45,740 nt of DNA from an uncultured Candidatus Saccharimonadales bacterium (GTDB lineage: Bacteria > Patescibacteriota > Saccharimonadia > UBA4664): NCBI GenBank assembly GCA_964609585.1, contig CAZSRA010000007.1:1-45740 (forward strand). The letters are read 5' to 3'. This document shows positions 1-27,329 of this stretch, in pieces. Position numbers and translations under genes: made by a program. The notes beneath the pieces are model-generated. The model worked only from the letters and a program-made list of their open reading frames with translations, did no database searches and was not told the origin of the DNA. Each line of letters begins with the position of its first letter. The first letter of the stretch is position 1.

Positions 1-1533
1 TTGCGCAAAGGCGTGGCCAAGAAAAAGCCCGAAGTGCTTGCCAAAATGAAAAAAGACTTCCTGGAAGGAGCCATCACTAAGTCCGGTGCCGACCCTGCGC
101 TCATGGAAGAATTCTGGACCCAGCTCGAAGCCTTTGCCGCCTATTGTTTTCCCAAGGCTCACGCTGCCTGCTACGCCCTCATCGCCTACCAAACCGCCTA
201 CCTCAAAGCTCATTATCCCGCCGCCTTCATGGCGGCCCTGCTCACCAGTGACTATGGCAACATCGACCGCATCGGCATCGAAGTGGCCGAATGTCAGCGC
301 ATGGGCGTCAAAGTGCTGCCGCCCGATGTGAACGAGTCCTTCCACGAATTCGCCGTCGTCAAAGAATCCGGCAACATCCGCTTCGGCCTGTCCGCCATTA
401 AAAATGTGGGAGGCGGTGCCATCGAGGCCGTTATCAAAGCCCGCGAAACCGGCGGTCCCTTTACTACAATCGAAGATTTCGCCAAGCGCGTCAACGCCCG
501 CGAGTGCAATAAAAAGGCCTGGGAATCATTTGCCAAAACCGGCGCGTTTGACGGCATCATTGGCGGCAATCGCGCCGAGCTCCTGTTTAATCTCGACACC
601 ATCACCTCCTACGCTTCCAAGGCGCAAAAAAATGCGCTCTCTGGTCAAATCGACATCTTCGGCTCGCTCGGTGCCGAAGACAGTGCCCCAGCATTGCGTC
701 TCGACCCGCCACCGCAGGTTGCGAGTCCCCGCGACCAATTGGCCTGGGAAAAAGACCTCCTCGGTCTCTATATCTCAAGCCACCCACTCGACGAATACGA
801 AGCCTACCTGGCCGACACCTGCCAACCCATCAGCCTCATCACCCCTGAAACCGATGGTAAACTCGTTCGTCTCGGTGGCCTCGTGACTACCGTGCGCAAA
901 ATTACTACCAAAAATGGTGGCCTTATGGCGTTCGTCGGCGTTGAAGACAAAACTGGCTTCACCGAACTCATTATTTTTCCCAAAGCCTTCGAAAAATCCC
1001 CAGAAGTTTTTGAGGTCGACAACATCATCATGGCTACTGGCAAAATCTCCGCCAAAGACCGTGAAGGCCGCCTTACCGGTGAACCCAAAATGCTCGTCGA
1101 CAGCGCCAAAGTCATTAGCTACGATACGGTAAAGGCTTATAAACCTTCTCCCGGCGCCAAGCCTCCTCCCATGACCGTAGCTCCCACGCCAGCCTGGCAA
1201 ACCAAAAAAGCCCAACCAGCTCCGTCCACGGCGCGACCACAAAAAGTCGCACCAGCGCCCGAACCCGCCATCCCAGCTACAGCCGAAGCCGCTCCTGTCG
1301 CCTCCTCCACTCACCTGGTTCTGCAACTGATCGACCTCTCCGATCAACAAATGCTCCATGCCATCAAAGATGTCCTTGGCGCGCATACCGGTGCCGTCGA
1401 CACTTACATCCTCGTCGGCCAGGATGCCCCTAAAAAAATCCGCCTGCCCTTCAAGGTGGAGATTTCAGATGAGCTGATATCTCAGCTGGGGGCAGTCGTG
1501 GGCGAGACACATGTCACCCACGCTTCTGCTTAA
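1..1533 (+). CDS. dnaE: DNA polymerase III alpha subunit, C-terminal part (gene starts before the window)
   Basis: FAAYCFPKAHAACY, YLKAHYPAAFMAALL, IRFGLSAIKNVG, WEKDLLGLYISSHPL, OB-fold, Pro/Ala-rich linker before the C-terminal domain. Confidence 0.96.
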   Translation: MRKGVAKKKPEVLAKMKKDFLEGAITKSGADPALMEEFWTQLEAFAAYCFPKAHAACYALIAYQTAYLKAHYPAAFMAALLTSDYGNIDRIGIEVAECQRMGVKVLPPDVNESFHEFAVVKESGNIRFGLSAIKNVGGGAIEAVIKARETGGPFTTIEDFAKRVNARECNKKAWESFAKTGAFDGIIGGNRAELLFNLDTITSYASKAQKNALSGQIDIFGSLGAEDSAPALRLDPPPQVASPRDQLAWEKDLLGLYISSHPLDEYEAYLADTCQPISLITPETDGKLVRLGGLVTTVRKITTKNGGLMAFVGVEDKTGFTELIIFPKAFEKSPEVFEVDNIIMATGKISAKDREGRLTGEPKMLVDSAKVISYDTVKAYKPSPGAKPPPMTVAPTPAWQTKKAQPAPSTARPQKVAPAPEPAIPATAEAAPVASSTHLVLQLIDLSDQQMLHAIKDVLGAHTGAVDTYILVGQDAPKKIRLPFKVEISDELISQLGAVVGETHVTHASA

Positions 1534-3392: not shown

Positions 3393-5942
3393 CTACCTCC
3401 GCTCAGCCAAAAACGCCTCAATCTCAGCCCGGTCGCGCTCGTACCAGTCGGCCTTTAGCTCCACACTTTCAACAGCCTGTGCCGCTGGTCGTTTAGTGCC
3501 GGGATGGGGGTGGCTTTCAAAAAACGTTTTAATCTCCATCGCCATCGTGTGAGTTGCAAAACCCATACCCGCGTAAGCCGGGAAGCGCTCAAGCATGTGC
3601 CCCCCTTCGCCGTACCGGTCCAAAAATAGTTGCCAATGCTCCTTTACAAACGTCCACGTCATCTCGCGCGCCTCGCGACTTCGAAAGCCTGATGCAACCA
3701 CCATAAAGATGTCTTGGGGCCGCACATCGGGCGAAATCCCTAGATCCAAAAACCGTTGGATGAGCTCTGGTTTGCGGAATCTGCCCAGAGCCGCCAGTAA
3801 GCTCATTTTTGCCTGCGGCGTTTCTTCTGCGCGGTAATGCTTCAAAATTTCTTCAAATTCTCGCTCGCCACCGTCCCGAGCAACCGCAAACAATATTGCC
3901 CCCCTCAAATCCGGGTTAAGTTCTTCGCCGAGCAAATAGCCCTCAAATCGCCGCTTTGCCTCAGCCGTCGCTTCCTTGTCTCCAAAGAGCACGGCCTGCA
4001 TCAAGACCACCGGCCTCATTAACGTATCAAATGGTGATTCACTAGCCTTCGGCTCCCAGCCTAGCCGGTCTAGGTTTGGCTTCACCAGCCAATCACCAAA
4101 CCGATCGAGCTCGTCGCGCAGCGGAGCATCCTCAATAATCGCTCGCACCTCAGCCAGTCCGTCGCTAACGGCGCACCACACTACATAGTCGGGTTCTTCG
4201 CGTAGTGAGGCGAGCAACGCGAGTCCCGCCGCCGAGCCCGTGCGTCCCGCTGCGATGTTCGCCCATACATCGCTCACAATCCCGAACCGGTCTCTCACGC
4301 CTAGCTGCTTGTCCTGCAAGGGGCCGCCGAGTGCCTGAATCATGGGTTGCGTATAGAGGGTCCGGAAAAAAGCCGTCTGGCCTGGGTTCGGCTTAAACCA
4401 CGCCGAAGCCATCACTTCCGGATCCACCTCGGTCGGTTCACGAATCAGTTGTGGTGCAGTTTCGACGCTGTCCGGAAGTGCCATTGAAAGGGGAAGCGGC
4501 CACAACTCACTTGCCTTACTGGCTTTTTTAGCCTCTCTGGGCGAGCTATAAAACCGCGCCTGCTTCACAAGTCCATCTTCAAACGACACCAGCGGATAGC
4601 CCGGCTGACCCGTCCAGGCCGACATTACTGCGTCCACCGGCTTGCCCGACACCTCAGCCAGCGCCGTCCATAAATCGTGAGTCACCGTATTGCCGTATTG
4701 GTGCCGCATCAAATACGTGTGCAAGCCTTTACGAAAATCCTCGGCTCCCACATATTGGTGGATCATATTAATAATACTTGCCCCCTTATAATATGAAATC
4801 GCATCAAAGATCTCATCCAAAGACCGCGGGTCGTCCACAGGTACCTGAATCGGATGCGTATTCGCCAGGCCGTCCAAATCCATGGCGTAAGCAAGCGTGC
4901 TACTAGCAAACTCGTCCCAAGCTCCCCACTGCGGAAACAGCTTGTCCATAGCCAAAACTTCTACCCACGTCGCAAATCCTTCATTGAGCCACAGATCTTC
5001 CCACCAGCTGAGCGTTACCAAGTTGCCAAACCATTGATGAGCTAGCTCATGGGCCACCACTTGCACAATGCGCTGTTTATTGGCCAGCGACGTTTTGAAT
5101 TCATCCAGCAACAAATCGGTTTCGCGGTACGTCACCATACCCCAGTTCTCCATTGCCCCCGCCCCAAAATCCGGAATAGCCACCATATCCAACTTCGGCA
5201 AAGGGTAATGAATCCCAAAATAATCATTATAAAAAACCAAAACTTGTACGGCCGTTTCGAGGGCAAAGTTTAGCTGGCCCGCCTTGCCGGGTGTGGCGTA
5301 AGCTCGTACGGTTGTGCCGTCGGTGGTTACGTTCTCCACATATTCAAACTCACCAGCCGCAAACGCGAGCAAATACGTGCTCATTTTCGGCGTTGGGCCA
5401 AACTGTACGGCTTTTCGACCGCCATCTACCGGCACCTCGCTCACTACCTGCGCATTCGATATGGCCGTTAAGCTTTCCGGAATTTGCAGCGTTACTTCAA
5501 AAATAGCCTTAGCTGAAGGCTCGTCGATGCAAATAATTGCCTCGCGCGCATGCACCGCTTCAAACTGAGTCGTCACCAGCCACTTTTCCTGGCCTTCATG
5601 GGTATAGCTACTGCGGTAAAATCCATGCAGTGAGTCTTGGACCTCCCCAGAGTAATCCAAATCCAAAGTGTGCTTACCGGCCGGGATTTCGTCTTCAAAG
5701 CTAAACGTTACGGTCTCGGCTTCTTTGCTAAGCACAATCGTGGCGGCCTTCAGGCGGTCGTCAAGCTTAGCCTTCGCTACCTTCAAGTCCTTGGCATGCA
5801 GCGTCAGCTCACGGCTCGGCTTTGCCAGCACGAACACTATCTCTTCCAGGCAGCGGAACGAAAATTTCTCCACGTCCACATCAAGATTCAATCGGTAATT
5901 TTCCGGAACAATGCGTTCGAGCAGTCGAGCCACTTTTGCCAT
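3393..5942 (-). CDS. pepN: M1 family zinc aminopeptidase (PepN / ERAP1-like C-terminus)
   Basis: TQFEAVHAR, GAMENWG, HELAHQWFGNLVT...WLNEGFA (HEXXH+E), ISYYKGAS. Confidence 0.96.
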   Translation of the reverse strand: MAKVARLLERIVPENYRLNLDVDVEKFSFRCLEEIVFVLAKPSRELTLHAKDLKVAKAKLDDRLKAATIVLSKEAETVTFSFEDEIPAGKHTLDLDYSGEVQDSLHGFYRSSYTHEGQEKWLVTTQFEAVHAREAIICIDEPSAKAIFEVTLQIPESLTAISNAQVVSEVPVDGGRKAVQFGPTPKMSTYLLAFAAGEFEYVENVTTDGTTVRAYATPGKAGQLNFALETAVQVLVFYNDYFGIHYPLPKLDMVAIPDFGAGAMENWGMVTYRETDLLLDEFKTSLANKQRIVQVVAHELAHQWFGNLVTLSWWEDLWLNEGFATWVEVLAMDKLFPQWGAWDEFASSTLAYAMDLDGLANTHPIQVPVDDPRSLDEIFDAISYYKGASIINMIHQYVGAEDFRKGLHTYLMRHQYGNTVTHDLWTALAEVSGKPVDAVMSAWTGQPGYPLVSFEDGLVKQARFYSSPREAKKASKASELWPLPLSMALPDSVETAPQLIREPTEVDPEVMASAWFKPNPGQTAFFRTLYTQPMIQALGGPLQDKQLGVRDRFGIVSDVWANIAAGRTGSAAGLALLASLREEPDYVVWCAVSDGLAEVRAIIEDAPLRDELDRFGDWLVKPNLDRLGWEPKASESPFDTLMRPVVLMQAVLFGDKEATAEAKRRFEGYLLGEELNPDLRGAILFAVARDGGEREFEEILKHYRAEETPQAKMSLLAALGRFRKPELIQRFLDLGISPDVRPQDIFMVVASGFRSREAREMTWTFVKEHWQLFLDRYGEGGHMLERFPAYAGMGFATHTMAMEIKTFFESHPHPGTKRPAAQAVESVELKADWYERDRAEIEAFLAERR

Positions 5943-23601: not shown

Positions 23602-24735
23602 CTATCCCGTCTCTGAATGCTCAAGCGCACGAATAAATAATTCAATATCTTTAGTTTGCAAAACTGGATCTTCAAGGCCTGCATGAAAACGAACGAGTGT
23701 ATTTTTCGGCGCATCAAGCCGACTGCTTAATTCGGTTGGCTGAAATGGCAGAACGAGACTGTGGGTCCCGCCCCATGACTCTCCAATCTTAAATACGGAT
23801 AGTGTAGAAAATAACCTATCAAGCTCAGCGTCTGTATATACTCTATCGAGCTCTACGCTGAATAAACCGTTCGTACCTGTGATGTTGCCTTTCTGACCAT
23901 CTACGAAGTAAATCCTCGGTATCTTTTTGGAATTTTTCATAGAATGCAGTAATCTCCTGGCGTTATTCCCATGTGCAAGTAGTCGTACTTTTAGAGTTTC
24001 CAGTCCACGCTGCACGAGCATAGCTGAAAAGGGTGATACAGTGTAGCCGTGAATCCGGTGGTAATAGCTTAGTTTTTTAAACAGGGTTTCCGACCTTGTG
24101 GTGACTGATCCCATAAATACGTCACTATAGCCAGCCGGATATTTTGTGAGACTGAGAATACTTATATCTACCCCATAATCCAGTGGATGCGACAAAACAC
24201 CGGCTGCCCATGTGTTATCTTCTGATGTTAATATTTCTCGTGATTTAGCTACTTCGACGACTGCATCTATATCAGTTACTTCAAATGTGGCTGATCCTGG
24301 AGATTCAATATGAATGAGCTTGGTTGTGTCGCGAATGGCCCGTTTTAGTGTGGAGAGGTCCTTTACGGAATACATGTCGTATGAGATTCCGAAGCGCTCC
24401 TGTAAATACTGCGCATATCGCCGAACAGGTGCATAGACAATATCCGGAATAAGCCAATGATCGCCCGAAGATAGCAACGCACTAAGCGCAATCAACGCAG
24501 TTAACCCACTGGGAAACAATAGCGTATGGCTACCATGCTCAAGTGCAGAAATAGAATCCTGCAGCTTTTGTAATGTCGGGTTTCCCTGGAGGCCATAGCC
24601 ATTGTCTACCCCGCTCACCACTTGGTTGATAAGCGTTGGTTTTCCGGCGCCTGCCGCTCTGTAGTCATGCAAACTGTCGAAGTACAGGCTAGTGGTTAGT
24701 TGTAATGAACGAGTAGTGTGATCGTTATTTCCCAT
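23602..24735 (-). CDS. metC: Cystathionine beta-lyase-like PLP enzyme (Cys/Met metabolism family)
   Basis: YGLQGNPT, LFPSGLTA, IESPGSATFEV, DNTWAAG, SLTKYPAGYSD (PLP lysine), IGESWGG..SL, VRFHAGLED. Confidence 0.85.
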   Translation of the reverse strand: MGNNDHTTRSLQLTTSLYFDSLHDYRAAGAGKPTLINQVVSGVDNGYGLQGNPTLQKLQDSISALEHGSHTLLFPSGLTALIALSALLSSGDHWLIPDIVYAPVRRYAQYLQERFGISYDMYSVKDLSTLKRAIRDTTKLIHIESPGSATFEVTDIDAVVEVAKSREILTSEDNTWAAGVLSHPLDYGVDISILSLTKYPAGYSDVFMGSVTTRSETLFKKLSYYHRIHGYTVSPFSAMLVQRGLETLKVRLLAHGNNARRLLHSMKNSKKIPRIYFVDGQKGNITGTNGLFSVELDRVYTDAELDRLFSTLSVFKIGESWGGTHSLVLPFQPTELSSRLDAPKNTLVRFHAGLEDPVLQTKDIELFIRALEHSETG

Positions 24736-24738
24736 GAC

Positions 24739-25773
24739 CTACTTCCACTTTCCGAGGAACGCTTTTTCATGCTGTCGCACAACTTTATTCGCCCCGAGAA
24801 TGCCGTGTTGTGTCATGTCGGGCGAGTATCTACTCGCCGGTACGATACGGCCGAGTGCTTCAGCCATTGACCGAACACTATGTGGTGCTCCGCCGCAGCA
24901 GATACCAATGTAGTTAACGCCATACTCCTGCGCTTTAAGTGCGAAATCTGCCATTTCGTTACGCGTGCACAAAAAGTGATCAAGCGACAGCGGGAACGCT
25001 CGTTCGCCTTTGTATTTAAGATATTGAAAGGCCGGGAATTGAGGTGTGGTGCGATACGGAACGGGTTGGGCTGCGATTGGACAAGATACGGCCTTTCGCA
25101 GCTTCTTGAGCAGCGGAAGCATTGTATTGGGGCCGGCTATGCAGTTAAACCCGACTACATCAGCACCTTTTTCTTCAAGGATTCGACAGCCTTCAATCCA
25201 GTCGTATCCATCTTTGCTCTGAGGGTACGTAGTTGCAAAAGTGATAAATGCTGGTAAGTTATATTTCTTGATAACTTCCAGGGCGATCAGCGCCTCTCCA
25301 ACATATTCAATGGTTTCGGCAATAATGAAGTCGACCCCTTCTTCTGCTGCCCATCGTACTTGCTCGTCATACATCTGGCGCACTTCCTCGGAACTTTGTT
25401 CTTTATTGTTGGGGTCATAGACCCAAGTGTTGCAAATATTACCGGCTACAAGCGCATTACCCTCTTCTGCAATTTCCCTTGCAATGCGAACAGCCTGTCT
25501 ATTGAGTCGTTCGAGATCTTTTTCACGGTCGATAACTCGCAATTTATCTCGATGAGCATAATACGTAAACGCTACCATTACTTCACTGCCTGCTCGCAAG
25601 AATTCACGGTGTAACTCGCGGAGTGCATCTGGATAGTCGAGCACGACTTCGGGCACATATGCGCCAGCCTTTAGATAACCCCGGCGTTCAAGTTCAAATA
25701 AATATCCTTCGGCTCCTAGCACAGCACCCTTTTGCAGCCGTTCTAGTATGTTTTGCTTTACTGGTGATGTCAT
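24739..25773 (-). CDS. Homocysteine S-methyltransferase, betaine-homocysteine methyltransferase (BHMT)-like
   Basis: EGYLFELERRGYLKAG, LHREFLRAGS, Zn ligands GFNC and GICCGGAPH; start reassigned to ATG 25773 after GAAAGGA. Confidence 0.92.
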   Translation of the reverse strand: MTSPVKQNILERLQKGAVLGAEGYLFELERRGYLKAGAYVPEVVLDYPDALRELHREFLRAGSEVMVAFTYYAHRDKLRVIDREKDLERLNRQAVRIAREIAEEGNALVAGNICNTWVYDPNNKEQSSEEVRQMYDEQVRWAAEEGVDFIIAETIEYVGEALIALEVIKKYNLPAFITFATTYPQSKDGYDWIEGCRILEEKGADVVGFNCIAGPNTMLPLLKKLRKAVSCPIAAQPVPYRTTPQFPAFQYLKYKGERAFPLSLDHFLCTRNEMADFALKAQEYGVNYIGICCGGAPHSVRSMAEALGRIVPASRYSPDMTQHGILGANKVVRQHEKAFLGKWK

Positions 25774-25802
25774 AGAAATCCTTTCATACGTTATCGAACG
25801 CA

Positions 25803-25830
25803 ATTAAATAAACCGGCCCTAGGCCGGTTT
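25803..25830 (-). terminator. Attenuator terminator upstream of the methyltransferase
   Basis: Minus strand AAACCGGCC-TAG-GGCCGGTTT then ATTTAATT. Confidence 0.75.
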
Positions 25831-25849
25831 GCGTTCAAGTATTTTGGGA

Positions 25850-25924
25850 CTATGAAAGCGGCCTAGGGCGAGACATGGGCATAGGCATCATCACAGTTTG
25901 GGCGTTATGGTGTTTTGTTTGCAT
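25850..25924 (-). CDS. Met-rich leader peptide 1, MQTKHHNAQTVMMPMPMSRPRPLS (24 aa; not in the ORF track)
   Basis: Read directly from the reverse complement; 4 Met in 6 codons; codons 19-22 contain GCCCTAGGCCG, the exact complement of the terminator 5' arm and loop. Confidence 0.8.
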   Translation of the reverse strand: MQTKHHNAQTVMMPMPMSRPRPLS

Positions 25925-25961
25925 GAGTAAATCTCAAGAGCTGTCGATAGTTGTTGTTAGT

Positions 25962-26375
25962 CTACGGGTGCAGCTTTAATCCGTGGACGATTTTGTCGAA
26001 GGTTTTACGATCTGCACGTATGGCTATCCCAACGATAGTAAATGCGCTGTCCCTTAGTGTCTTGACGACTGCTCGATTATCTATATCGTTGTCTGTTTTG
26101 AACATTCCTTCCGCATAAATTGCCGGTTTTACTCCACGATTTAGAGCCCGGTCTTTTGTCCGGATAAGGTGCTCTTGTGGTGCGGCATAGATAAAGACGG
26201 GTTGTACGATCAGTGGCAAATATTTGTGGTTGGTGGCGTCTTCATAGTCCTCTCCTATGCTTTCGGGCGCTGATGCCGCTATTCCAGTTGCCAAGAAGGC
26301 TGTGACATTGAGCTTCTGCCAGTCCAGTAGGTCGTCCCGGATCACGATGCCTACTTTAGTATCATGTGTTGCCAT
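25962..26375 (-). CDS. DUF2000 family protein (peptidyl-tRNA hydrolase II-like fold)
   Basis: KVGIVIRDDLLDWQKLNVTAFLATGI, YEDA...YLPL..QP, ...DKIVHGLKLHP; SD AAAGGAG. Confidence 0.8.
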   Translation of the reverse strand: MATHDTKVGIVIRDDLLDWQKLNVTAFLATGIAASAPESIGEDYEDATNHKYLPLIVQPVFIYAAPQEHLIRTKDRALNRGVKPAIYAEGMFKTDNDIDNRAVVKTLRDSAFTIVGIAIRADRKTFDKIVHGLKLHP

Positions 26376-26393
26376 AGCGAACTCCTTTTACAA

Positions 26394-26421
26394 TAAAAAA
26401 CCTCCGTTTTGCAGCGGAGGT
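26394..26421 (-). terminator. Attenuator terminator upstream of DUF2000
   Basis: Minus strand ACCTCCG-CTGCAAAA-CGGAGGT then TTTTTATT. Confidence 0.85.
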
Positions 26422-26451
26422 AGTTGTCGACTTGATTTATTCTACGACAAA

Positions 26452-26514
26452 CTAAAACTCCGCCTCACGGTGGGGCATCATTGCCATCATCATATTGCGG
26501 GTATTGTTAGTCAT
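26452..26514 (-). CDS. Met-rich leader peptide 2, MTNNTRNMMMAMMPHREAEF (20 aa; alternative in-frame ATG at 26523)
   Basis: 5 Met in 6 codons; 3' end GCGGAGTTTTAGTTTGTCG pairs with CGACAACTACCTCCGC, which includes the terminator 5' arm. Confidence 0.85.
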   Translation of the reverse strand: MTNNTRNMMMAMMPHREAEF

Positions 26515-26521
26515 TGGCTTC

Positions 26522-26550
26522 ATTCTATGTTGCTAGCGGTATTTTATCAA
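26522..26550 (-). promoter_or_regulatory. Promoter of the Met operon, giving a leaderless or near-leaderless leader-peptide mRNA
   Basis: TTGATA-N17-TAGAAT, 7 nt upstream of ATG 26514. Confidence 0.7.
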
Positions 26551-26597
26551 GTGATCGATATCTAAAACCTCAACATCTTCAAGGCCAACTAAAAGTT

Positions 26598-26621
26598 CTG
26601 ACATTGTATATACAATGTCAG
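26598..26621. promoter_or_regulatory. Perfect 24-bp palindrome, probable AbrB/MazE autoregulatory operator
   Basis: CTGACATTGTATATACAATGTCAG directly upstream of the mazE remnant. Confidence 0.7.
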
Positions 26622-26638
26622 TAACCGGAGGACATAAA

Positions 26639-26923
26639 ACGAAAACTACAACCTAAGTAAAAATGTGGGGCAATAGCCTGGCGATCCGCATTCCTTCTCG
26701 GGTAGCCCGAGATCTAGGGCTAACAATCGATAGCCAGATAGAAATCGCCAGCGATGGCAGCACCGCCACCATAAAACGCGAAGAGAACCCCCGCCTATCC
26801 TTAGAAGAAATTAGTCAAACCCCTCGACATACTATCCGACCATTGCAAAAGAGTTCGAATGAAAGCCGTTCAAGGGCACCAAGACACTATTTTTTTATGC
26901 TTCCACTAGACATGAATTGTTGA
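26639..26923 (+). pseudogene. mazE: Decayed AbrB/MazE/SpoVT antitoxin gene; no toxin gene follows
   Basis: GGAGG-N7-ACG AAA ACT ACA ACC TAA GTA AAA ATG TGG GGC AAT AGC (start appears as ACG, in-frame TAA); WGNSLAIRIP..A..LGL motif; similarity lost after LSLEE. Confidence 0.7.
26839..26881 (+). repeat. Direct repeat copy 1 (43 bp)
   Basis: ACCATTGCA-AAAGAGTTCGAATGAAAGCCGTTCAAGGGCACCA; differs from copy 2 by 1 indel and 2 substitutions. Confidence 0.9.
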
Positions 26924-26987: not shown

Positions 26988-27329
26988 TTAAAATAGTTTG
27001 CTTCCCAGCGGCACTTCGCGTTCGGGCTGCGACAGAACCACATTGCCATGTGCATCCGCGAAACCAAGCGTAAGGCTTTCTGATATGAACGGACCTATCT
27101 GCTTGGGCGGAAAGTTCACAACTCCCATCACGAGCCGCCCGATCAACTCTTCTTTTGTATAATGTTTGGTTATTTGAGCCGACGAGCGCTTTAAGCCAAT
27201 TTCAGAGCCGAAGTCGATCGTAAGTTTATAGGCTGGTTTTCTTGCTTGAGGAAAATCCTCAGCGGCAATAATTTTCCCGGTTCGAATATCTATTTGCTCA
27301 AAGTCTGCGTAAGTGATGGTATTGTTCAT
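26988..27329 (-). CDS. csaA: tRNA-binding protein CsaA/Trbp111 (homologous to the MetRS C-terminal domain)
   Basis: DFEQIDIRTGKII, KPAYKLTIDFG, SSAQITKHY, VVNFPPKQIGPFISESLTLG. Confidence 0.92.
   Translation of the reverse strand: MNNTITYADFEQIDIRTGKIIAAEDFPQARKPAYKLTIDFGSEIGLKRSSAQITKHYTKEELIGRLVMGVVNFPPKQIGPFISESLTLGFADAHGNVVLSQPEREVPLGSKLF

Follow-up and report, generated by a model that had tools for sequence, protein, structure and literature searches.

The window, by which we mean the whole stretch of 45,740 nucleotides analysed here from an uncultured Candidatus Saccharimonadales bacterium, carries a Met-rich leader ORF, an antiterminator and an intrinsic terminator (together attenuator 1) in front of a homocysteine S-methyltransferase (HMT) family gene and a cystathionine beta-lyase (CBL)-like gene, and this element is very probably a genuine member of a family of Met-leader attenuators that is apparently undescribed. 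A homologous combination of Met-rich leader, terminator and antiterminator was found in 11 distinct related metagenomic loci, before HMT, CBL, DUF2000 or SAM-hydrolase-like genes. Control of HMT-CBL by attenuator 1 is well supported by the arrangement of the sequence elements, although it is predicted from them. In the window, attenuator 1 follows a second element of the same kind (attenuator 2) and a DUF2000 gene, and we lean somewhat towards the view that the two attenuators are in series, with attenuator 1 serving as a working second methionine checkpoint.

On the minus strand, read from 26900 to 25300, a promoter-like site is followed by leader 2 and its terminator, the DUF2000 gene, a 37-nt spacer, leader 1 and its terminator, HMT and CBL (Table 1). 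The DUF2000 gene has a strong Shine-Dalgarno (SD) sequence (AAGGAG, -8.8 kcal/mol), and HMT, the first gene under the predicted control of attenuator 1, has AAAGGA at 25784..25779 (-8.2 kcal/mol); all SD scores assume a canonical anti-SD sequence. The CBL gene starts 3 nt past the HMT stop codon, and the top NCBIfam matches of its product are cystathionine beta-lyases, under the equivalog cut-offs. Both genes downstream of attenuator 1 thus belong to the metabolism of methionine, the amino acid that would be sensed. The nearest homologues of the DUF2000 and HMT proteins carry, in their source records, the name Patescibacteria group or Candidatus Saccharimonadales. An 8-nt complementarity between the end of leader 1 (25858..25851) and the SD region of HMT (25788..25781) was also seen, and is within chance expectation.

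Table 1. Features of the tandem attenuator locus and corresponding elements of related loci (L numbers); coordinates are those of the window.
Feature	Coordinates	Strand	Sequence or description
Promoter-like site	26522..26550	minus	TTGATA, 17-nt spacer, TAGAAT; only minus-strand site in 26700..25760 to reach 9/12 of the consensus
Leader 2 ORF, Met-rich	26452..26514	minus	MTNNTRNMMMAMMPHREAEF; conserved in L161 (MANDTRSMMIAMMPHREAEF..), L163 (MIAQATARSMMMPRHT) and L178 (MIEQSPAYSMIMPCHI)
Attenuator 2 terminator	26391..26421	minus	ACCUCCGCUGCAAAACGGAGGU (hairpin 26421..26400), then UUUUUUAUU
DUF2000 gene	25962..26375	minus	137 aa; PF09391, E = 3.8e-35; PDB 2GAX, E = 2e-34
Apparent decayed promoter relic	25931..25936	minus	TGAGAT at the -10 position of relatives (TATAAT in L166); no -35 box; TGAGAT also in L161
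Leader 1 ORF	25850..25924	minus	24 codons, MQTKHHNAQTVMMPMPMSRPRPLS, plus stop codon; homologous leaders in L166, L081 and L169
Antiterminator 5' arm	25855..25869	minus	core GCCCUAGGCCG at 25869..25859, within leader codons 19-22
Attenuator 1 terminator hairpin	25810..25830	minus	AAACCGGCC-UAG-GGCCGGUUU, then AUUUAAUU (25809..25802)
Outer helix around terminator and U-tract	25794..25838	minus	UUGAACGCAA (25838..25829) pairs with UUGCGUUCGA (25803..25794)
HMT family gene	24739..25773	minus	344 aa; PF02574
CBL-like PLP enzyme gene	23602..24735	minus	377 aa; PF01053
Outer helix strands, window			GAACGCAA / UUGCGUUC
Outer helix strands, L081			GAACACAAA / UUUGUGUUC
Outer helix strands, L169			GAAUACAAU / AUUGUAUUC
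Outer helix strands, L166			CACAAACA / UGUUUGUG
Type I leader, L166			MIALKATRAMMMPMYMPSPRPIS; upstream of HMT-CBL
Type I leader, L169/170			MFVCNSQIMMMVMLCPRPIS; upstream of HMT
Type I leader, L081			MITIITNQTVVMPMSMFSPRPIS; upstream of CBL
Third-type leader, L083			operon of SAM-hydroxide-adenosyltransferase-like gene (weak, below Pfam cut-off), B3/4-domain protein, cupin and DUF2000
Third-type leader, L086			before homologue of the first L083 gene; DUF2000 downstream

Leader 1 has Met at codons 12, 13, 15 and 17 (25891..25874), that is, four Met in a run of six codons. Its terminator consists of a perfect 9-bp G+C-rich stem (25822-25830 / 25810-25818), a 3-nt loop and a U-rich tail, the U-tract being interrupted (UUUAUUUAAUU), and ends 28 nt before the ATG of HMT. 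The preliminary description had claimed a perfect 11-nt antiterminator, and this was confirmed: GCCCTAGGCCG (25869..25859; codons 19-22, R-P-R-P) exactly complements CGGCCTAGGGC (25826..25816), which covers part of the 5' arm and the loop of the terminator. The sequence GCCCTAGGCCG occurs exactly twice in the 45.7-kb window, on the minus strand at 25859-25869 and on the plus strand at 25816-25826, against 0.06 chance matches expected; since the two copies lie on opposite strands, they are reverse complements on one RNA. A repeat search finds 93% complementarity over a longer stretch of 15 nt (25855-25869 with 25816-25830), and the segment 25830..25816 of the terminator hairpin doubles as the 3' partner of the antiterminator. 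The hairpin is also picked up by a terminator scan. When the 131 nt that precede the terminator were shuffled with dinucleotide content preserved, an exact complement of 11 nt was reached in 2 of 20,000 cases, which corresponds to a chance probability of about 1e-4, and the antiterminator duplex (-25.6 kcal/mol) lies far below the shuffled values (-11.6 +/- 2.0 kcal/mol, minimum -19.9). A scan of the whole window with Rfam 15 covariance models at the gathering score found one tRNA and no leader, SAM riboswitch or T-box family, and a permissive scan of 25600..26800 returned chance-level matches only.

Taken together as a switch, these elements would form a ribosome-mediated transcription attenuator that senses methionyl-tRNA through the four AUG codons of the leader. 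A Met-starved ribosome would halt at the early Met codons and leave the downstream GCCCUAGGCCG free. This segment would then sequester the 5' arm and loop of the hairpin by pairing, and RNA polymerase would continue into HMT and CBL. With ample methionine, the ribosome would instead cover GCCCUAGGCCG up to the stop codon, the terminator hairpin would form and transcription would end. The minimum-free-energy fold of 25961..25800 is the antiterminator, with -28.2 kcal/mol for the unconstrained RNA versus -13.2 kcal/mol for the terminator alone. The effect of the ribosome was modelled by folding the nascent RNA between start codon and U-tract while 28 nt, taken as the footprint of the ribosome, were barred from pairing; the footprint began 15 nt upstream of the first base of the A-site codon and ended 12 nt downstream of it. 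In this thermodynamic, non-kinetic model with an assumed footprint size, attenuator 1 gave the antiterminator when the A site was placed at M12, M13 or M15, and the terminator when it was placed at M17 or on the stop codon. Two details weigh against the proposed switch: a ribosome stalled at M17, the last Met codon, would in the same model overlap part of the antiterminator arm, and the U-tract is interrupted. The same dependence on the A site was obtained for the elements of L166, L081 and L169, and attenuator 2 switches between M8-M10 and the stop codon. By RNA folding, the 1:2 protector hairpin is absent from attenuator 1 and present in attenuator 2. Untranslated RNA of attenuator 1 would therefore be open, and that of attenuator 2 would, because of its protector hairpin, be closed. 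The 1:2 hairpin, which underlies super-attenuation, is typical of the trp type of attenuator and is not essential to the mechanism.

An outer helix can form around the terminator and U-tract of attenuator 1, and it is possible only in read-through RNA. It is found in all four type I elements (those with the arms of attenuator 1, described below), with compensatory differences and with shifts of the helix register among the four. When full-length RNA including this helix is folded, the extended hairpin is preferred over the antiterminator. On this model the outer helix would arise too late for the termination decision, and resetting of the leader or an effect on mRNA stability or processing are possible roles for it.

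The related loci come from metagenomes and MAGs, with DUF2000 or HMT as the anchor gene. Seven distinct HMT loci were sampled; a Met leader stands before HMT in five of them (L166, L167, L168, L169/170 and L174) and is absent in L171-173 and L175-177. The type I arms (GCCCUAGGCCG / CCGGCCUAGGGCCGG), which are those of attenuator 1, are shared by L166, L169/170 and L081; in L166, L081 and L169 there is no DUF2000 immediately upstream of the leader. A second HMT-associated type (L167, L168 and L174) has other arms, which are paired with terminators of the GAGCCUCGG type, and leaders such as MTHEPIAREAMMQMMPQPSPRGLLSA, and a third type, with CGCGGAG arms and leaders of the form ..MDMMMPPR.., is found at L083 and L086. 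Leaders similar to that of attenuator 2 precede DUF2000 in L161, L163-165 and L178. The leaders of the relatives contain three to five Met within five to six codons, with two within three codons in L178.

The arms vary by group (GCCCUAGGCCG; CCGAGG / GUCGGGG; CGCGGAG; GGCGGAG), and complementarity to the terminator of the same element is kept. Pairing was scored for each element as duplex energy against shuffles, because a MAFFT alignment of seven HMT/CBL-associated leaders was too poor across types for pair counting. For the 3' part of each leader, a terminator of the same type is the best partner or close to the best. The pairing is significant against shuffles in most HMT-type elements (z values of -3.8 to -5.5) and weaker in elements of the attenuator 2 type (-1.2 to -2.2). 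The elements share a constant geometry, in which the antiterminator arm begins 4-13 nt past the final Met codon and is contained in the leader ORF or, in attenuator 2 and L163, spans its stop codon. Rfam models found only tRNAs in 11 related loci. A DUF2000-anchored scan of genome contigs returned only distant relatives (up to 64% identity; Proteobacteria, Actinomycetes and Chlamydiales), none of which has a Met leader before DUF2000.

In all ten related elements compared for promoter spacing (attenuator 2, L161, L163, L166, L081, L169, L167, L168, L083 and L086), 6-8 nt separate a -10 box from the start codon of the leader; this box is mostly TAnnnT, often TATAAT, with a TTGnnn box 16-18 nt further upstream. 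This spacing places the start of transcription at or beside the start codon, which implies that the mRNAs are leaderless. In Saccharimonadales, a member of the family thus appears normally to combine a promoter of its own with a leaderless leader ORF. Ordinary genes of the window, such as the tRNA-binding-domain gene at 27329, likewise have promoters of the leaderless type, and in L179 DUF2000 itself has one.

Attenuator 2 follows this pattern, its -10 box ending 7 nt ahead of the in-frame ATG at 26514, a spacing that implies a leaderless leader 2. The longest ORF would place the start of leader 2 at 26523; this candidate was set aside, as its ATG overlaps the -10 box. The Met cluster of leader 2 is located at 26493..26476, and the 5' arm of its terminator, CUCCGCU (26419..26413), can pair with GGCGGAG of the leader (26464..26458), an alternative pairing that is statistically weak (z = -1.8 against shuffles).

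Leader 1 departs from the pattern. The preliminary description had noted no clear promoter or SD between the DUF2000 stop codon and the ATG of leader 1, and this held in consensus scans and SD scoring. On the minus strand of 26700..25760, no site of at least 9/12 was found between attenuator 2 and leader 1, and in a relaxed scan the matches other than 26550..26522 reached 7-8/12 at best, some of them inside DUF2000. Where the relatives have their -10 box, leader 1 has TGAGAT, in which the second base is not the essential A, and TAACAA stands at the -35 position. The SD score of leader 1 (-2.7 kcal/mol) is at background: 42% of the ATGs across the window do equally well. A candidate SD sequence 7 nt upstream, GAGA, was rejected because it scores at this level. 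A leader that starts at the 5' end of the transcript is therefore predicted by promoter spacing for leader 2 and all the relatives, and not for leader 1, which cannot be leaderless because it has no promoter of its own. Since the consensus scans found no promoter between the two elements, an RNA polymerase at attenuator 1 most likely began upstream of attenuator 2. The earlier proposal that the transcripts come from the upstream promoter is supported accordingly by the site at 26550..26522, the only good promoter and one that lies upstream of attenuator 2; judged by sequence, attenuator 1 is probably fed by this promoter alone. The promoterless state of leader 1 appears to be derived, a stand-alone leaderless attenuator having been captured behind DUF2000.

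The history of this arrangement can be followed in L161, the closest relative by DUF2000 (91% identity). L161 retains attenuator 2, with the same promoter layout as the window (TTGATA-17-TAAAAT-7-ATG), DUF2000, the same spacer, the start of leader 1 and TGAGAT. After codon 10 of leader 1, however, its sequence jumps to the middle of HMT through a 502-nt deletion, corresponding to 25894..25393 of the window. Lost with that segment are the Met codons, the two arms and the terminator of the switch, together with the 5' part of HMT; what is left of HMT is frame-shifted. The junction of DUF2000 and leader 1 is common to the window and L161; therefore, the tandem layout existed before the two lineages separated, and one of them subsequently lost it. 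The deletion of the switch in L161 also indicates that the tandem arrangement is dispensable. Among the closest DUF2000 homologues (P0001, P0002 and P0004-P0006) and the HMT relatives examined, the layout DUF2000-attenuator-HMT was found only in L161, as a deleted relic. From these comparisons the serial arrangement seems to be lineage-specific, and it looks like a recent accident of gene order rather than a conserved design.

In the serial reading, which we favour mildly, the polymerases that arrive at attenuator 1 would have started at the promoter of attenuator 2, and both attenuators would act on one transcript. A role as second checkpoint requires that leader 1 be translated from an internal, SD-less AUG. 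Established knowledge allows for two ways in which this might happen on the polycistronic mRNA. Ribosomes that finish at the DUF2000 stop codon, 37 nt upstream, might re-initiate across the unstructured stretch, or translation might start without an SD sequence in the spacer, which is A/C-rich and unstructured in its centroid fold. If leader 1 were untranslated, its RNA would fold into the antiterminator, and therefore read-through would be constitutive and there would be no checkpoint. On this rests an account that we consider rather unlikely, in which attenuator 1 is vestigial and permanently open, and HMT and CBL are co-transcribed with DUF2000 under attenuator 2 as the single checkpoint. 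It is favoured by the lack of both SD and promoter at leader 1 in a family whose other members depend on leaderless initiation, by the unconstrained fold, in which the antiterminator is both transcribed earlier and more stable than the terminator, and by the loss of attenuator 1 in the sister lineage L161. On the other hand, the leader 1 ORF, its four Met codons and both arms are intact, and the nearby DUF2000 stop codon leaves re-initiation open. None of the 26 paired arm positions differs from L166, compared with about one third of the positions in the spacer separating the arms, although this constraint may predate the fusion. The chances that attenuator 1 still responds to methionine in its present context appear evenly divided.

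Two further accounts would uncouple attenuator 1 from attenuator 2 or from regulation altogether. Leader 1 might be driven separately by a promoter that is weak or departs from the consensus, situated either in the spacer or in the 3' end of DUF2000. In that case the two attenuators would work in parallel, which is the situation of the relatives, in all of which the homologous element has its own promoter. Candidates do exist, namely a 7/12 match with a TAnnnT -10 box (TCCACG-17-TAGACT) at 25987..25959, the relic TGAGAT itself, and 8/12 matches at 26104..26076 and 26063..26035. However, such matches are at chance level (sites of at least 9/12 number 8 against 6.4 expected, and none of them lies here), TGAGAT stands at the leaderless position without the A at position 2 and without a -35 box, and a transcript from 25987..25959 would carry a 5' UTR lacking an SD sequence, so that an independent promoter seems improbable. 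It is harder still to credit that the hairpin is merely the terminator of DUF2000, which it follows with a U-rich tail, and that the complementarity and the Met-rich ORF are coincidental: HMT and CBL would be left without a promoter, the same succession of leader, antiterminator and terminator precedes HMT or CBL in L166, L081 and L169 without a DUF2000 directly upstream, and the complement would have to have arisen at the chance probability given above.

Attenuation by leader peptides is textbook knowledge for Trp, His, Leu, Thr, Phe and Ile/Val, whereas the controls known for methionine genes are SAM riboswitches, T-boxes or repressors. Rfam has leader families for the Trp, His, Leu and Thr attenuators. 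Attenuator 1 resembles the classical attenuators of Escherichia coli (trpL, hisL, leuL, thrL, pheL and ilvL) in having a short ORF rich in cognate codons and an intrinsic terminator before the first structural gene, and in an antiterminator that shares a strand with the terminator, so that the position of the ribosome would decide between them. It differs from them in that methionine would be sensed, an amino acid for which no curated Rfam leader family matched, the 1:2 hairpin is missing, the antiterminator arm lies inside the ORF, the host belongs to the candidate phyla radiation and the relatives are predicted to be leaderless; in addition, its untranslated RNA would be open, whereas that of the classical type is super-attenuated. 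The serial arrangement recalls tandem riboswitches and T-boxes, in which two sensors of the same or related signals follow each other on one transcript, but here the sensors are translated leaders rather than RNAs that bind a ligand or a tRNA, and the whole DUF2000 gene lies between them. The two gene sets would thus pass different numbers of checkpoints, and the notion that two checkpoints give a steeper or graded response is pure conjecture.

Leaderless leader peptides have been described in Actinobacteria. In Streptomyces lividans TK24, a leaderless metL (MSTTSDRTPATEATTTPGARCMCRRMCAF) has been proposed upstream of metNIQ; its two internal Met codons are scattered, and by its authors' account a typical terminator is lacking (PMC8079986). 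The likeness to the present family lies in the ORF at the 5' end of the transcript and the proposed Met-related leader; by contrast, the present family has three to five Met in five to six codons, a canonical terminator and a demonstrable antiterminator, and shows no sequence relationship to metL. Similarly, mycobacterial polycysteine leaderless short ORFs (the "Cys ribulon") are leaderless sensory ORFs rich in one amino acid that precede several loci of its metabolism and provide regulon-like control through ribosome pausing, but they act on translation (bioRxiv 10.1101/834739), whereas the present family has hairpin-plus-U-tract terminators and would sense Met instead of Cys. The searchable literature yielded one tentative Met leader peptide, that of S. 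lividans, which lacks a terminator, and nothing relevant on Met-rich leader peptides or attenuation in Saccharibacteria/Patescibacteria.

It is tempting to speculate that Saccharimonadales possess a methionine "ribulon", in which leaderless AUG-rich leaders and their switches stand before HMT, CBL, DUF2000 and SAM-hydrolase-like operons, two of them being fused in the window into a working two-stage checkpoint in which the second leader would be translated internally on a polycistronic mRNA; as a whole, this broader proposal is a tentative one. If it is true, the type I switch would be open by default, and a shortage of either fMet-tRNA (at initiation) or Met-tRNA (at elongation) would turn the genes on. 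If the conserved, covarying Met attenuator family is real, the uncultivated Saccharimonadales would gain their first described cis-acting amino-acid sensor, and methionine would join the amino acids sensed by classical attenuation. The family would then show which genes these genome-reduced epibionts treat as methionine-related, including the B3/4-domain protein, the cupin and the uncharacterised DUF2000 family, the last of which would be tied to methionine/SAM metabolism. The serial arrangement alone is a modest, lineage-specific curiosity, and the locus in the window would be a natural test of a leaderless sensor relocated inside an operon.

In attenuator 1, the minus-strand element that precedes the homocysteine S-methyltransferase gene (HMT), the terminator and its U-tract are flanked by an outer helix of 8-10 bp, which can form only in the read-through RNA. 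Compensatory substitutions preserve this helix in all four elements that share the arms of attenuator 1 (type I), namely attenuator 1 itself and those of the related metagenomic loci L166, L081, and L169. In predicted folding of the full-length RNA, where the outer helix is present, the extended terminator hairpin is favored over the antiterminator. The end of leader 1 is also perfectly complementary to a segment overlapping the HMT Shine-Dalgarno sequence. L166 carries UUUCGU and ACGAAA at the equivalent positions, and no counterpart of the pairing was found at the equivalent places in L081 or L169. About 0.3 complementary pairs of this kind are expected by chance in 190 nt; the match may be fortuitous or may represent a translational layer of control.

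In the sister contig L161, a deletion brings codon 10 of leader 1 directly up against mid-HMT sequence; what is left of HMT is frame-shifted. Ada/AlkA-type genes lie downstream of this remnant, with no cystathionine beta-lyase-like gene (CBL); this lineage is losing its methionine-salvage genes.

Coordinates of the features in the window and related loci (L-numbers)
Feature	Position	Strand	Remark
Outer helix of attenuator 1	window 25838..25829 + 25803..25794	minus	also in L166, L081, L169
Leader 1 end CUUUCAUA / complement UAUGAAAG	window 25858..25851 / 25788..25781	minus	perfect complementarity
Deletion in sister contig	L161 1213..1420 = window 25894..25393		502 nt
Met leaders with DUF2000 downstream	L083 871..3405; L086 497..1926; L081 1176..3414
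Tiny ORF MRATARAPMQLFPIPS	L082 about 515-565		after TATAAT box
Tiny ORF MRPTARAPMQ	L084 / L085		after TATAAT box, just upstream of DUF2000
Leader (..MDMMMFLIIEAEV..)	L162 about 3900..4000		upstream of and running into DUF2000
Inverted repeat (CTGACATTGTATATACAATGTCAG)	window 26621..26598		perfect, 10 bp, 4-nt center
MazE/AbrB-like gene	window 26663..26923	plus	divergent from attenuator 2 promoter
Leaderless-type gene starts	window 27329, 44132, 18280, 34132; L179 864

DUF2000 lies downstream of Met leaders repeatedly, accompanied by methionine/SAM-related or uncharacterized genes: a SAM hydroxide adenosyltransferase-like gene (weak Pfam hit), a B3/4-domain protein, a cupin, and CBL. These contexts connect methionine or SAM metabolism in the Saccharimonadales group with DUF2000, an uncharacterized family (PDB 2GAX). 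The tiny ORFs of L082 and L084/L085 resemble the attenuator 2-type leader of L163 (MIAQATARSMMMPRHT), with a single internal Met in theirs. They may be degenerate leaders or peptide-dependent stalling elements; the RAP motif is suggestive. In L162, whose DUF2000 is 88% identical to that of the window, the terminator is reduced to its 3′ half (GCGGAGGUUUU), and the element is apparently a degenerate attenuator 2.

The inverted repeat between the MazE/AbrB-like gene and the attenuator 2 promoter may be an operator for this DNA-binding protein or a bidirectional terminator. At several ordinary genes, the −35/−10 pair ends 6 nt before the ATG and a Shine-Dalgarno sequence is scant or absent, which suggests widespread use of leaderless mRNAs in this organism. 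The tRNA-binding-domain gene at 27329, for example, has TTGTCA-16-TATACT-6-ATG, and in L179 DUF2000 itself has this arrangement.
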